Below, one piece after another: positions 45,865 to 50,952 of a stretch of 55,434 nt of DNA. Within the stretch, counting starts at the first letter, position 1. Every line of letters starts with the position of its first letter. The notes under the pieces were generated by a model, which searched no databases, was not told the DNA's origin, and worked only from the letters and a program-made list of their open reading frames with translations. Origin of the DNA: an uncultured archaeon (GTDB taxonomy: Archaea; Asgardarchaeota; Lokiarchaeia; Sigyniarchaeales; SOKP01); the NCBI GenBank assembly GCA_964632315.1, contig CAZWEM010000030.1:1-55434 (forward strand). The letters run 5' to 3'. Made by a program: the position numbers and the translations under genes.

Positions 45865-47289
45865 TTAATCCGTTATAGGTTTTTTTCCTCTCATAAATGA
45901 GAGTACCGCCCCAACTAGGCAAATTATTGCAGAGACAATTAATAAAACCTGCATTCCCATTGTAAATTCCGTTATTGCTGTTGGATCTGTTATTACTGTT
46001 TGATTTCCTAAAATTAGGTTTAACAGTGAAAGAGGAATGAAGAATGTCAATATAACACTTAATAAAGCCACGCTTGTTGATTGTCCTACCACACGCATGG
46101 TTGAAAGTGTTCCTGCAGCAATCCCGTGATCCCTGGGCTCTACAGAATTCATGATGGCAGAATTATTAGGGGATGAAAACAATCCAATTCCTACTCCGAC
46201 TATAAACTGAGCTATTATAATATAAATTAAGGGTAGAAATTGCAGATCAACACTTAAAATAATGAAACCAATTGCCATGATAATCAAGCCAAGTGTCGTC
46301 AAGATCCTCGTGCCCACCCTATCAGAAAGGCGTCCACTCAATGGGGCCACACTCGCCATCGTTATTGTAGTTGGTAATAAATATAAAGCTGTAATGGCTG
46401 GGGCGATTCCTAAAACTGATTGAAGATAGATAGAAAGCAAAAAACTAACTCCAGATACGGCAGTATAATTCAGTAACGCTGCAAAATTAGCAAAAGCGAA
46501 TATCTTATTTACTCTAAATAAGCTTAGTTTAAATAATGGATATCGTGTCTTACCTTCGATATAAATAAATATGATAATACTGGAAACTGATATAATGAGT
46601 AAAAGGATAACTTGAATAGAGCCCCATCCAACTTGATTAGCAATAGTCAGTGCTAAAAGTAAGGTAGCTAAAAAAGCTCCAAAAAGCAGTGTTCCTTTGA
46701 TATCAAATCTTTCTTCTTTTATTCCAGGATTTACCTTTTTTAACTTAAACCATCCCACGATTATGACAATGATTCCTATTGGTACATTTATGAAAAAAAT
46801 AAGCCTCCAAGTGAAGAATTGCACAATAAACCCTCCCAAAACTGGTCCTATAACTAAACCTAAATAGATAGTTGCCACATTAATTCCTAATGCTTTACCA
46901 GTCTCCTCTCGGGGAAAAACATCGGTTATCATTGAAGGAGCATTTGCACCAATAAATGAACTCCCAATGCCTTGCACGGCTCTAAAAATTACCAGAGTGA
47001 TTTCAAAGGTCACAAAAGTAGACAAAAAACTCGCAACGGTAAAAAGGGCGATACCGAACAAAAAAAAGGATTTCCTTCCTTTTAAATCGGATAACCTCCC
47101 AAAACTTACAAGGGTAACTGCTTGAACTAATAAATAAATTATCGGAACCCATTGAACTAATTGAAAGGAAGACCCCACTAAATCCCTTGAAAGAGCGGGA
47201 ATCGCAATGTTTACAATACTACCATCTAAAGAGGACATGAATACCCCGATGGTCGTTATTATTAAAACAACCCATTTATACCTTGCCAT
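45865..47289 (-). CDS. MFS transporter, DHA2 (EmrB/QacA-like) 14-TM
   Basis: LDGSIVNIAIP, GRLSDLKGRK, GPVLGG, WRLIFFINVPIG. Confidence 0.92.
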   Translation of the reverse strand: MARYKWVVLIITTIGVFMSSLDGSIVNIAIPALSRDLVGSSFQLVQWVPIIYLLVQAVTLVSFGRLSDLKGRKSFFLFGIALFTVASFLSTFVTFEITLVIFRAVQGIGSSFIGANAPSMITDVFPREETGKALGINVATIYLGLVIGPVLGGFIVQFFTWRLIFFINVPIGIIVIIVGWFKLKKVNPGIKEERFDIKGTLLFGAFLATLLLALTIANQVGWGSIQVILLLIISVSSIIIFIYIEGKTRYPLFKLSLFRVNKIFAFANFAALLNYTAVSGVSFLLSIYLQSVLGIAPAITALYLLPTTITMASVAPLSGRLSDRVGTRILTTLGLIIMAIGFIILSVDLQFLPLIYIIIAQFIVGVGIGLFSSPNNSAIMNSVEPRDHGIAAGTLSTMRVVGQSTSVALLSVILTFFIPLSLLNLILGNQTVITDPTAITEFTMGMQVLLIVSAIICLVGAVLSFMRGKKPITD

Positions 47290-47477: not shown

Positions 47478-50333
47478 TCAATTTTTTATTTCTAAAGAAA
47501 CTTCAACTGTGTTATCGTCTATTTTAAATATTTGGGTCTCCATTTGGTCAGTAATTCTTTTTATTATATTATCTGCTTGAATTGATTTTTTAATTTTATT
47601 TTCGTATAAGTCTAGAGCCTCTAGAATTTGTTCATTATTAGATGAAATGTAGAGATTTATTCTATTGCTTGGAGAGAGCTTCTTCTTTTTCCTACAATTA
47701 TTTAAATTTCTGATCAAGTTTCTAGTTATTCCTTCCAATTTCAACTCCGGAGTAATAACTGTATCTAAATTTATCGAGAGCTCTTCGACCGGGCTATTAT
47801 CAACAACCACTTCCCTTACATTTAAAGTTTGTGAAATGAGATCTAAATATTCTTGCTTGAGATCGACTCCCTTAATGGTGACTTTCTGCAGTACTTGTCT
47901 TACAGGAATTTTTGCATTTTCCCTTAACTCAAACGTTCGCTTTACGATTTCTTTAGTTAACTCCATCTTTTGTTGAAGATCTTGATTGATTAATTCTTCC
48001 TCATAACTTGGCCAAGATTCTAAATGAACCGATTCGAGATTAGTTATATTATTCTCCTTTAGCTTTTGATAAATCATTTCTGAAATGAAAGGCGTGAGGG
48101 GTGCTGATAGTTTTGCTAGATTTAAAAGCACGTATGAAAGAGTGTTCATCGCATTCAGTCTTTTGGATTCTAATTCACTTTTAAACCGATTTCTACTGTT
48201 TTTAAGATACCACGTTGAGAGATCCTCCACAAAACTAAATACCAACCGACAAACTTCAGAGGTATCGAAATCATCCATTCTTAGGGTCACTTCCCCGATT
48301 AATTCGTTAAGTGTGCTAATGATCCATTTATCCATGATATTGCGAGAATCGGCTAAATTTATAGTTGAGTTATTGATATCAACCATCGAATAAAACCTTA
48401 AAACATTTATCAATAATAAATTAAATCTTCGATAGACTTGTTTTACAATTTCCTCTTTGAAGTTTAAATCTTGGGCTCTCATGAGTTGTGAGGACATTAA
48501 ATAAATCCGTAAAGCGTCTGCTCCGTATTTCTCTATGATTTGGTTTGGATCGGGAAAATTTCTCTTTGATTTTGACATCTTGGTTCCATCCTCCGCGAGA
48601 ATATTTCCATTTACTACTACATTTCTAAACGGGATCTCATCAAATAATAGAATTGAAATCACGTGCATGTAATAAAACCACGCTCTCACTTGTCCTATAT
48701 ATTCTGATACAAAATCACTGGGAAAGTTTGTCTTGAACCATTCCACATTTTCAAATGGGTAATGTTTTGCTGCGTAAGGCATTGAACCAGATTCTAGCCA
48801 GCAATCAAAAACTTCAGGAATTCGATTCATCACCTTTCCACAATTTTGACATCTCAAATGAATCTCATCTACGATATGTCTATGGAGATCAACGTCATCC
48901 GGAACCCCCTCTACTGCATTTTCTTGTAACTCTTTAATCGAGCCAATCACTTTAACCGCATGACAGCCTTCACATTCCCAGATCGGTATAGCGGTGGCCC
49001 AAAAGCGATTTCTAGATATACACCAGTCTGGAGCTGTTTCCACTATATTTTGATATCGTTTTGCTATCTCTTTAGGATACCAGTTGATCATTTCATTTGT
49101 TTTTAGTAATTTTACTTTTATCTGCTGGATATCAATGAACCATGCATCGAGAGCATTATAAATTAAAGGAGTTTCACATCTATAGCAAAATGGATAAGAA
49201 TGGGTGTAATTTTCTGAACTGTACAGGAGATTTTTTTGTATCAAATCCTCCAATACTACTTCATCCAAGTCTTTGAACCAAAGTCCAATCCACTCTGGGG
49301 GTCCAAGCGCTAACTTCCCTTGTTCATCAACATGCTGAATTTGAGGTAGATCATATTTCTTAATCATTTCGTAATCAAATTCTCCATACAATGCCACGTG
49401 AATTATTCCCGTTCCTTCATCTGATAAGACTTCCTCCCCTCCATCGATGACGTAGTACCCTTTTTCATCAGCGTCATTCGAAATTCGATATAAGGGTTCA
49501 TATTTCTTGTTTAATAATTTTGATCCTGGAAATTCCTCAATGACTTCATAATTTTCTTTAACGATATTCAACTGATCCTTAATCAAAATGAAGAATTCAT
49601 CGCCTATCTTTACCTTGACATAGATAGCTTTGCTATTTATTGCTAAAGTTACATTTCCGATTAGAGTCCATGGAGTGGTTGTCCATGCTAAGAGGAAAGT
49701 GCTGGGATCATTCTTTAGTTTAAACTTAGATATGACTGATTGTTCAGTGACATCTTTATAGCTATTATCCATTGATATCTCGGAATTTGAGAGTGGAGTC
49801 TCGCATCGTGGACAGTAATACAATACTTTTTTACCCCGGTATACCAGCCCTTCCGTATATATTTTTTTAAAGATATACCACACCGTTTCCATGAAGCTGT
49901 TATCCATGGTTTTATAAGAGTTATCAAACTCAATCCACTTACCCATGCGCTCAACTGTCTCTTTCCATTCGTTAGTATACCAAAGAACCTTCGAACGACA
50001 GAATTCATTGAAGTTCTTTAGACCCATCTCAAATATCTCATTCTTCTGCCTAATATCAAGCGTTCTTTCGCAAATACTCTCTATAGGGAGTCCATGACAA
50101 TCCCAACCCCAGCGTCTTTCGCAACGGTATCCCTTCATCGTCCAATATCTAGGAAAGACGTCTTTGGTTACAAAAGAAAGAATATGTCCATAATGAGGTA
50201 ATCCAGTTGCAAAAGGAGGTCCATCATAGAACACGTATGGATTCCTTTTCGGCCTTTGTTCGATGCTCTTTTCGAAGATGTGATTATCTTTCCAAAATTT
50301 AATGATTTTCAGTTCTTTTTCGTTATAAGACAT
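47478..50333 (-). CDS. ileS: Isoleucine--tRNA ligase (archaeal/eukaryote-type)
   Basis: DGPPFATGLPHYGH (HIGH), GWDCHGLP, WTTTPWTL, DWCISRNRFW, KMSKS; SD AGGAG at 50343-50339. Confidence 0.97.
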   Translation of the reverse strand: MSYNEKELKIIKFWKDNHIFEKSIEQRPKRNPYVFYDGPPFATGLPHYGHILSFVTKDVFPRYWTMKGYRCERRWGWDCHGLPIESICERTLDIRQKNEIFEMGLKNFNEFCRSKVLWYTNEWKETVERMGKWIEFDNSYKTMDNSFMETVWYIFKKIYTEGLVYRGKKVLYYCPRCETPLSNSEISMDNSYKDVTEQSVISKFKLKNDPSTFLLAWTTTPWTLIGNVTLAINSKAIYVKVKIGDEFFILIKDQLNIVKENYEVIEEFPGSKLLNKKYEPLYRISNDADEKGYYVIDGGEEVLSDEGTGIIHVALYGEFDYEMIKKYDLPQIQHVDEQGKLALGPPEWIGLWFKDLDEVVLEDLIQKNLLYSSENYTHSYPFCYRCETPLIYNALDAWFIDIQQIKVKLLKTNEMINWYPKEIAKRYQNIVETAPDWCISRNRFWATAIPIWECEGCHAVKVIGSIKELQENAVEGVPDDVDLHRHIVDEIHLRCQNCGKVMNRIPEVFDCWLESGSMPYAAKHYPFENVEWFKTNFPSDFVSEYIGQVRAWFYYMHVISILLFDEIPFRNVVVNGNILAEDGTKMSKSKRNFPDPNQIIEKYGADALRIYLMSSQLMRAQDLNFKEEIVKQVYRRFNLLLINVLRFYSMVDINNSTINLADSRNIMDKWIISTLNELIGEVTLRMDDFDTSEVCRLVFSFVEDLSTWYLKNSRNRFKSELESKRLNAMNTLSYVLLNLAKLSAPLTPFISEMIYQKLKENNITNLESVHLESWPSYEEELINQDLQQKMELTKEIVKRTFELRENAKIPVRQVLQKVTIKGVDLKQEYLDLISQTLNVREVVVDNSPVEELSINLDTVITPELKLEGITRNLIRNLNNCRKKKKLSPSNRINLYISSNNEQILEALDLYENKIKKSIQADNIIKRITDQMETQIFKIDDNTVEVSLEIKN

Positions 50334-50374
50334 TATATCTCCTACTTTTTATTTAATTATTCAAGTTTCTAAAT

Positions 50375-50382
50375 AAAAAAAA
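50375..50382 (-). terminator. U8 tract in the ileS leader (candidate conditional archaeal terminator)
   Basis: A8 on plus = U8 on the ileS mRNA, between the leader helices and the ileS SD. Confidence 0.35.
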
Positions 50383-50420
50383 TTAAATAGTTAAGATTTT
50401 GGAATTTAACTTATAATTCA

Positions 50421-50571
50421 ATGCATTCATGAAGCGGGATGTGGTATGAAGTTTATAAAAATTCACTTCATGAAGAAAAGAATTCAGCCAATAATAATCG
50501 TGGATGCACTAATAATGAAACTGCATATCAAAATTGAGAAATTAGTACTTTCTTTCATAATAACCACATCC
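50421..50571 (-). promoter_or_regulatory. Putative ileS attenuator RNA with alternative helices
   Basis: Complementary segment pairs 50464-74/50426-36, 50563-71/50437-45, 50515-26/50421-30 and 50465-71/50446-52. Confidence 0.6.
50484..50558 (-). CDS. Putative Ile-rich ileS leader peptide (24 aa)
   Basis: ATG...TGA encoding MKESTNFSILICSFIISASTIIIG: 7 Ile including II and III runs; ends 150 nt before ileS on the same strand. Confidence 0.7.
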   Translation of the reverse strand: MKESTNFSILICSFIISASTIIIG

Positions 50572-50736
50572 ACTAATTACAAATAAGGGAACTAAATTTT
50601 TAAAATTTGTTGATGATTTATCCAAAATGGGAACTCGTTCCCTCAAATAAAAAAATATTTATTTTATTTATCCCGTTTCTGTGTTGATGATTATCGAATG
50701 GTTAAATTGAGGAAGATTTCAATAAAATTTTATTAT

Positions 50737-50952
50737 TCACGTTTTTAATTTGCTTAAAGATTGATTTTTACTAAACTCTTCAATGATTATCAATGGCTCC
50801 AATTTTTCACGTTTATAATTGGTTGGTGTTGATATTCGATATTCTTTAATACAATCATTAGAACATGACTCAAACATCTTATTACATACTTTACAATAAA
50901 GTCTTCTTTGTTTAGGAATTAATAAATTTTCACAATACGGACAAAATCTCAT
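50737..50952 (-). CDS. TFS/RpoM (RPB9/RPA12/RPC11-like) N-terminal zinc-ribbon-only protein
   Basis: MRFCPYCENLLIP....LYCKVC; SD AGGTGA; no C-terminal ribbon. Confidence 0.65.
   Translation of the reverse strand: MRFCPYCENLLIPKQRRLYCKVCNKMFESCSNDCIKEYRISTPTNYKREKLEPLIIIEEFSKNQSLSKLKT

Follow-up and report, generated by a model that had tools for sequence, protein, structure and literature searches.

The leader of ileS2, an isoleucyl-tRNA synthetase gene of an Asgard archaeon, is probably a gauge of charged tRNA-Ile that is read by the ribosome. Comparison of orthologous leaders shows a short upstream open reading frame (uORF), an invariant run of Ile codons near its end, three predicted helices (E, B and A), covariation within these helices and near-equal predicted energies of the alternative folds, and on this comparative basis an Ile-tRNA sensor appears well supported. 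With somewhat less confidence we favour the fuller reading of an archaeal leader-peptide sensor, in which a ribosome paused on the Ile codons picks the fold of the ileS2 leader and the output is produced by termination dependent on a U tract and aCPSF1 or by a pseudoknot-dependent step, not by a bacterial hairpin terminator. The analysis started from a 55,434 nucleotide stretch of DNA, which will be called the window. The features discussed below, all encoded on the minus strand, are the following, in the order of transcription.

50594..50608, minus strand: TATA-like box of the putative leader promoter, within a block conserved 5' of S1 in all orthologs.
50564..50573, minus strand: S1, GUGGAUGUGG, 5' arm of helix E; also resembles a Shine-Dalgarno site for the uORF, with 5 nt between it and the AUG.
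50484..50558, minus strand: uORF encoding the putative leader peptide MKESTNFSILICSFIISASTIIIG, with stop codon; 24 codons, 7 of them Ile, stop codon at 50486-50484.
50500..50509, minus strand: S2, 3' arm of helix E in the RNAalifold consensus, inside the uORF and ending 1 nt before the Ile run.
50490..50498, minus strand: AUU AUU AUU, the Ile codon run and presumed stalling site, invariant columns in alignment A1 (see below).
50464..50474, minus strand: S3, 5' arm of helix A, starting 9 nt after the uORF stop codon.
50459..50485, minus strand: possible hairpin F, formed by GAAUUC, which overlaps the stop codon, and GAAUUU, which overlaps the 3' end of S3.
50437..50445, minus strand: S4, ACCACAUCC, 3' arm of helix B, located in the loop of hairpin A and adjoining the 3' arm of A.
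50426..50436, minus strand: S5, 3' arm of helix A, pairing with S3 over 11 bp.
50375..50382, minus strand: U8 tract, candidate archaeal terminator signal, its position kept in most long-form leaders.
50339..50343, minus strand: AGGAG, Shine-Dalgarno site of ileS2, complementary to the 16S rRNA 3' end of the same genus.
47478..50333, minus strand: ileS2, encoding a 951-aa isoleucine--tRNA ligase of the DPANN/CPR-like type (TIGR00392, 821 bits).

The ATG of ileS2 is at 50333, and the leader 5' of it is approximately 240 nt long. The encoded enzyme is 32-35% identical to the native-type IleRS of the genus (about 1050 aa, the usual enzyme), and its nearest relatives beyond the Asgard archaea belong to DPANN archaea and CPR bacteria (45-61% identity). 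Judged by these identities, ileS2 is a DPANN/CPR-like xenolog and not the usual enzyme of the lineage. All sequences compared derive from metagenome bins, and the named relatives are bins of Promethearchaeota (Asgard). In a sister genus, five complete genomes carry both ileS2 and the native IleRS gene. In the genus of the window, a native-enzyme query matched the ileS2 locus alone in five genomes, two of which are 99-100% complete; judged by this query, ileS2 seems to be the sole IleRS gene there. Besides ileS2, the genome of the window contains fragments of a native-type IleRS gene on two other contigs (C95 and C81), and with an estimated contamination of 8.6% the presence of both types in this genome is not certain.

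Several local features of these loci were recorded. The position of the ileS2 ATG is occupied by ATT, ATA, GTT or TTA in L037, L040-L044, L048-L053, L058, L087, L089, L093, L117-L128 and L136. In most of these orthologs there is an in-frame GTG 9 nt upstream, within a GGTG that otherwise resembles a Shine-Dalgarno site, which makes the start ambiguous, and the idea of a non-AUG (ATT/ATA/GTT) start was dropped; in L049, L059 and L127 the upstream GTG is followed by an in-frame stop codon. A second class-I synthetase-like match (23-26% identity) lies about 700 nt 3' of ileS2 in L038, L039, L051 and L117; an intein or insertion in these four genes was considered and rejected, the second match being merely a weak one further downstream. 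Directly 3' of ileS2 in the window lies a gene for a DHA2-family MFS efflux protein (45865-47289, minus strand), found there in this genome only and unlinked in 33 other Asgard loci. On the 5' side of the leader, a 71-aa ORF (50737-50952, minus strand) weakly resembles archaeal transcription factor S, with a match below threshold (TIGR01384, 23.6 bits). A resistance island composed of ileS2 and the MFS pump was also rejected, as neither the MFS gene nor the 71-aa ORF neighbours ileS2 in the 33 other loci.

The leader was present at 56 of the 56 related loci found, which include every Asgard ortholog found (at least 67% identity). Counted by source, it accompanied 7/7 orthologs in relatives, 33/33 loci in Asgard genomes and 23/23 metagenome loci (at least 68% identity). 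At all of these loci GAUGUGG is located at -213 to -266 and followed by a uORF of 20-25 codons; nearly all have CCACAUC about 126 nt after GAUGUGG. No leader was found at any of the DPANN and CPR loci examined (the relatives at 45-61% identity). When 400 genomes of the Asgard phylum were searched for the S1...S4 pattern, 33 other genomes, all from a single family, had it once each and always at ileS2, and no copy was found before other genes; matches in other families were discarded as GC-rich coding look-alikes devoid of the Ile run. The orientation of the leader is constant and its distance to ileS2 about constant, and the surrounding genes are not conserved across loci; leader and ileS2 therefore form a self-contained unit. 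Rfam gave no match in the window at the gathering score, including the T-box covariance model, and none in 50300-50700 at E values up to 1. Full-text literature searches uncovered neither a leader-peptide sensor in archaea nor any mention of this ileS2 or its leader element. The sequencing runs that match the stretch are DNA runs only, mostly labelled as salt-marsh or marsh metagenomes, with no RNA run listed.

The upstream sequences of the 55 orthologous leaders compared share a TATA-like consensus, TACCGTAATATTTTTTAGA in orthologs other than the window, about 30-48 nt 5' of S1, and the conserved block containing it is presumably the leader promoter. Within S1, GAUGUGG is invariant in the 55 leaders. 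S1 complements the 16S 3' end GGAUCACCUCCU as GGA-x-GUGG (this end was taken from a genome of the same genus, the 16S rRNA gene not being assembled in the genome of the window), and shifted by 2 nt (50571-50563) it constitutes the 5' arm of helix B. An ATG-started uORF was found in 53 of the 55 leaders, with 24 codons in 46 of these. It ends with 3-5 Ile codons, 0-1 further codon and a stop codon, which varies between TAA, TGA and TAG. Indels inside the uORF are 12, 3, 3 and 3 nt long, that is, multiples of three, and a 1-nt insertion right behind the Ile run leads to an immediate stop. By these features the uORF looks like a translated frame. Conservation of the peptide is poor in its N-terminal half, and AUUAUUAUU is invariant; residues are kept only where the Ile run or RNA pairing imposes a constraint. 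That the nucleotides encoding AUUAUUAUU do not vary could be due to a further constraint on the RNA. One metagenome contig (SDBU01004089.1, L126) has ATT at the uORF start, and its ileS2 match begins at residue 10; this may be a decaying copy or a near-cognate start.

The first 180 nt of the 55 leaders, 53 of them distinct, were aligned (alignment A1). Run on A1 unaided, RNAalifold predicted two helices, E (S1:S2) and A. The segments quoted for helices A, B, C and D and for the U8 tract in the original prediction all lie where they had been placed and pair as described, and a covariation check had been proposed for them; in the 55 leaders this check came out in favour of A and B, and of E, which had not been listed, all three being conserved with compensatory changes, and against C and D. 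In helix A (50474-50464 : 50436-50426, 11 bp with one G-U pair) 97.2% of the cells are paired and both-sided changes occur at 5 of the 11 pairs; its loop of 27 nt is conserved. In a short-form leader from the same genus (L011; short-form leaders are described below) helix A has a change that by eye seems compensated (GUGAAAC : GUUUCAC). Helix E is 95.6% paired, with 3 pairs changed on both sides. Taken together, E and A are 96.5% paired and have 8 double-changed pairs; neither this pairing nor the covariation score was reached by any of 500 shuffles, a significance that is overstated as the leaders are related. When the pairing partners were slid by 1-3 columns, pairing dropped to 31-50%.

Helix B is a perfect 9-bp helix in the window (50571-50563 : 50445-50437). 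It is 99.0% paired in the 55 leaders and mostly invariant, and two of its pairs show double changes, so that the covariation of B rests on two lineages. Column 12 of S1 is changed from G to A in L058 and L136, and the change is compensated by C to U both at column 81 (in S2, for helix E) and at column 153 (in S4, for helix B). Such a three-way compensation is the pattern that a strand alternating between two partners should show. Covariation private to one helix was also seen, at 11-82 for E and at 20-144 for B, the latter in the window. The S1:S4 duplex has predicted energies of -12 to -21 kcal/mol across the orthologs, and the near-invariance of S1 and S4 exceeds what pairing alone would need. 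G-U pairs are frequent (for example, in 39, 51 and 37 sequences at three pairs); they would be mismatches on the other strand or in duplex DNA, and therefore the structure appears to be one of the ileS2 sense-strand RNA and not of DNA.

Other predicted pairings fared less well. Helices C and D, proposed as competitors of A, are 48.6% and 67.8% paired in the 55 leaders and are not conserved; they are by-products of a palindrome, UUCAUGAA, and it is this palindrome that accounts for their presence in the genome of the window. Helix B had been suggested to mask the initiation site of the uORF. This holds for the helix itself, an arm of which is the Shine-Dalgarno-like site. Its extension over the uORF AUG (AUGAA : UUCAU) is 74.8% paired and not above shuffles. 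Hairpin F is 85.1% paired with weak covariation; it is compatible with B, excludes A and is part of the minimum free energy (MFE) structure of the window core. Folded alone, the 163-nt core of the window is not stable beyond chance (z = -1.56; 13 of 200 shuffles fold as well), and the case therefore rests on the comparison with other sequences.

When the leaders were forced into the E+A or the B state, the predicted energies differed by 2.6 +/- 4.2 kcal/mol, B being lower in 39 of the 55 leaders, and in almost every leader the unconstrained MFE structure is one of these constrained states. E and B share S1 and both covary, and S2 lies within the footprint of a ribosome decoding the Ile run. 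Going by the geometry of the sequence, S2 would be in or just behind the E and P sites of a ribosome on any of the AUU codons, so that stalling would leave S1 free. Helices A and B cross (B5 < A5 < B3 < A3, with zero nt between B3 and A3), and a pseudoknot of A and B with loops of about 93 and 19 nt appears sterically possible; for this reason the exclusivity of A and B, which was part of the claim of mutually exclusive helices, was not accepted. The exclusive pair that the alignment supports is E versus B, which share S1. The proposed switch set by ribosome position on the Ile codons finds strong comparative support, with E and B as the competitors instead of A and C or D.

Taking these observations together, the following mechanism can be envisaged. 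Transcription would start a few nt 5' of S1. S1 would serve as the Shine-Dalgarno-like site of the uORF and, at the same time, as a strand with two possible partners, S2 (helix E) or S4, about 125 nt downstream (helix B). If no ribosome is stalled, the local hairpins E and A would form first, directly upon their transcription. Under a shortage of Ile-tRNA, the leading ribosome would presumably stall on the AUU run and its footprint would cover S2. S1, kept free in this way, could capture S4 as the latter emerges. The resulting B fold, slightly the more stable of the two, could include A in a pseudoknot or have hairpin F in the place of A. The choice of fold would then set the amount of ileS2 product made. 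That stalling leads to more IleRS would be the logical direction, and the assignment of the 'on' state to one of the folds is presumptive. In long-form leaders, our best guess for the output is that transcription ends conditionally at the U tract, some 44 nt past hairpin A, by the U-tract/aCPSF1 (FttA) route; in short-form leaders there may be another read-out (translation, mRNA stability), or most of the control may have been lost. For the window itself, conditional termination at U8, gated by the choice between E and B, is a tentative reading, and control of translation or of mRNA stability in place of it appears about as likely.

The output step was approached through the region downstream of hairpin A. 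Among the 42 long-form leaders, that of the window included, most have a run of five to ten T, often accompanied by a second run of four or five, at a constant position 50-65 nt beyond the point where the 3' arm of A begins; this position is conserved in 5 long-form lineages. No T run is found there in the 13 short-form leaders (one has a T6 elsewhere), yet they have kept E, B and A; since their helices are intact and still covary, the U tract cannot be the universal output. Several short-form leaders come from genomes where ileS2 is the only IleRS gene found, and one short-form genome (G008) has both; that the terminator was lost once ileS2 had become indispensable is suggestive only. In the genome of the window, T runs of at least 7 are enriched 4-8 times in the first 40 nt past stop codons, and no peak is seen 5' of start codons. 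This distribution favours a terminator signal rather than a TATA box as the reading of U8, and it would fit with U-tract terminators being the rule in this organism. According to a review, aCPSF1 works with U tracts, and an aCPSF1 from Lokiarchaeota can replace the Methanococcus maripaludis enzyme (PMC13675443); this review, which dates from 2026 and covers termination signals in the different domains, does not once mention 'attenuation' (PMC13675443).

As the original prediction had stated, no hairpin-plus-U terminator of the bacterial type is present: the sequence right after hairpin A is A-rich and has no direct U run, so hairpin A is no intrinsic terminator. Between hairpin A and the ileS2 start RNAalifold found no conserved structure (energy 0) in the long-form set or in any of its sub-clades, and in the short-form leaders a small hairpin at the start region was the only structure that it returned downstream of A; a conserved terminator, anti-terminator or ribosome-binding-site helix in this region was accordingly rejected. 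Duplexes between S4 and the ileS2 ribosome-binding site are typically around -5 kcal/mol (-2 to -11) and mostly not better than those of shuffles; in about half of the short-form leaders they are somewhat better. As these duplexes are weak and in most leaders not better than shuffles, S4 appears unlikely to act as an anti-Shine-Dalgarno sequence for ileS2. A second uORF ending beside the ileS2 start, which would allow termination-reinitiation, was found in few orthologs only, and this reading was rejected.

Alternatively, the leader could be a separate small gene that has a promoter of its own and ends at the T tract as its terminator; its product would be a hydrophobic peptide of 24 residues or else a structured small RNA. 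Transcription of ileS2 would then start from a second promoter, located within the T-rich stretch, and the linkage of ileS2 to the element would be genomic, not cis-regulatory. There is a promoter-like block upstream of S1, the T-rich stretch resembles the TATA-like box in this block and a similar ATATTTTTT motif is found at the T tract, T runs seem to act as terminators in this genome, and no conserved RNA structure joins the element to the ileS2 start. However, the element is found only before ileS2, in the same orientation and at a similar distance, with a wider neighbourhood that is not conserved; its peptide is free to vary outside the constraints of RNA pairing and the Ile run; the short-form leaders have no T tract that could end the transcript; T runs have no positional peak upstream of start codons genome-wide; and Ile codons preceding an Ile-specific synthetase gene would have to be a coincidence. 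Taking all this into account, we regard a separate gene as improbable.

Still less probable is a folded RNA bound by a protein or ligand (IleRS2, a ribosomal protein or isoleucine), to which the uORF would be secondary. E. coli ThrRS binds its own operator; folds like that of the leader, a hairpin with a conserved 27-nt loop that pairs with a distant strand, occur in such systems; and the near-invariance of S1 and S4 beyond the needs of pairing could be due to a bound partner. Against this, 53 of the 55 leaders have preserved the uORF in its frame, start, length and terminal Ile run, with frame-preserving indels, S2 occupies the very place that would be masked by a ribosome on the Ile run, no tRNA-Ile-like motif was seen, and Rfam returned nothing even at E values up to 1. 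Finally, that the complementary segments are DNA-level inverted repeats (operators) or chance pairings in AT-rich sequence, as the fold of the single sequence (no better than shuffles) and the several pairings (C, D) offered by the palindrome might suggest, is very improbable and largely refuted by the compensatory changes that 53 distinct sequences show in E, A and B, by the common G-U pairs, which are mismatches in duplex DNA, and by the collapse of pairing in the slid controls.

The preferred reading, a leader-peptide sensor of Ile-tRNA charging, gains a parallel from a second synthetase leader in the genome of the window. On another contig (C37, about 1208-1419; L237/L238) a 27-codon uORF ending in ...LLALLLLL and a stop codon (five Leu) is located 131 nt before leuS. 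Three nt past the uORF stop there is a 10-bp hairpin (GGACAAAUCC : GGAUUUGUCC), and for a CUCUUU motif in its loop there is a complement, AAAGAG, in the downstream sequence. Both uORF and hairpin are kept in 7 relatives (L239-L245), with changes that look compensated by eye; a T tract is not kept in the leuS leaders of these 7 relatives. Like the ileS2 leader, the leuS leader has a uORF with a run of cognate codons and a stop codon, then a covarying hairpin of about 10 bp within a few nt, and a hairpin loop complementary to a distant segment. The two differ in sequence; in the leuS leader the loop partner lies downstream, not upstream, and no Shine-Dalgarno-like strand was seen before the uORF. 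By this comparison, at least two synthetase leaders of this archaeal family are built on the same plan. When the genome of the window was scanned for uORFs with amino-acid runs using a Shine-Dalgarno filter, only non-cognate cases were found (before genes for a decarboxylase, a Ras GTPase and thiolases); the scan missed the leuS leader because there is no Shine-Dalgarno-like site in it.

If the proposed mechanism is true, the archaeal relatives of eukaryotes share with bacteria, or have evolved independently, the use of a leader peptide for reading tRNA charging, and the sensor would sit in the Asgard lineage closest to eukaryotes. It would also mean that transcription, translation and RNA folding are kinetically coupled in Asgard archaea and, if the leuS leader is considered as well, that genes outside Bacteria are controlled by coupling translation to the folding of nascent RNA. 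ileS2 would be a horizontally acquired synthetase gene that replaced the native one in some genomes and whose control was either brought along or acquired. With its approximately 170 nt the element is compact and could be moved into a tractable archaeon for studying how archaeal termination or translation reads RNA structure.

Several known systems resemble the ileS2 leader in part. In Bacillus, an inducible second, divergent IleRS gene (ileS2) is under T-box control. T-box leaders of ileS genes, like the leader described here, tie expression of the synthetase to the charging of its own tRNA; T-boxes, however, bind uncharged tRNA directly and have no uORF, whereas the ileS2 leader has a uORF and no T-box match in Rfam. 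In ermC, stalling in the leader peptide remodels a chain of hairpins, the last of which hides the ribosome-binding site of the resistance gene. Remodelling of hairpins by leader-peptide stalling, as in ermC and cat, would be shared by the ileS2 leader, and a stalled ribosome could also stabilise the mRNA; in contrast to ermC, the best duplex that S4 can form with the ribosome-binding site of ileS2 is typically as weak as about -5 kcal/mol.

In the Salmonella mgtL-mgtA system, a uORF with proline codons controls Rho-dependent termination, the position of the ribosome selecting the RNA fold. To our knowledge archaea have no Rho, and the RNA polymerase of an Asgard archaeon does not need a hairpin to terminate. 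With folds that are read by a termination factor and not by an intrinsic terminator, mgtL-mgtA would be the likeliest analogy should aCPSF1/FttA act on the U tract of the ileS2 leader. The factor here would be a CPSF73-type nuclease acting with U tracts (PMC13675443). As a further difference from mgtL-mgtA, no loading site differing between the two folds of the ileS2 leader was identified.

The leaders of pheM-pheST, ilvL, ivbL, leuL and trpL in E. coli encode leader peptides containing codons for the regulating amino acid and form alternative RNA pairings, one strand of which can be masked by the ribosome. Among these bacterial leader-peptide attenuators pheM-pheST is the nearest, as there, too, the regulated gene itself encodes a synthetase. 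With this class the ileS2 leader shares the run of cognate codons and the alternative pairings, one strand of which would be masked by a stalled ribosome. It differs in that there is no G+C-rich hairpin with an immediate U run, the U tract following only about 44 nt later; in that the toggling strand lies 5' of the uORF and doubles as its ribosome-binding site; and in that its host is an Asgard archaeon, an attenuator of this kind not having been described before in archaea in the literature searched. Judged by these likenesses and differences, the ileS2 leader would work like the bacterial leader-peptide attenuators but without their defining terminator feature.
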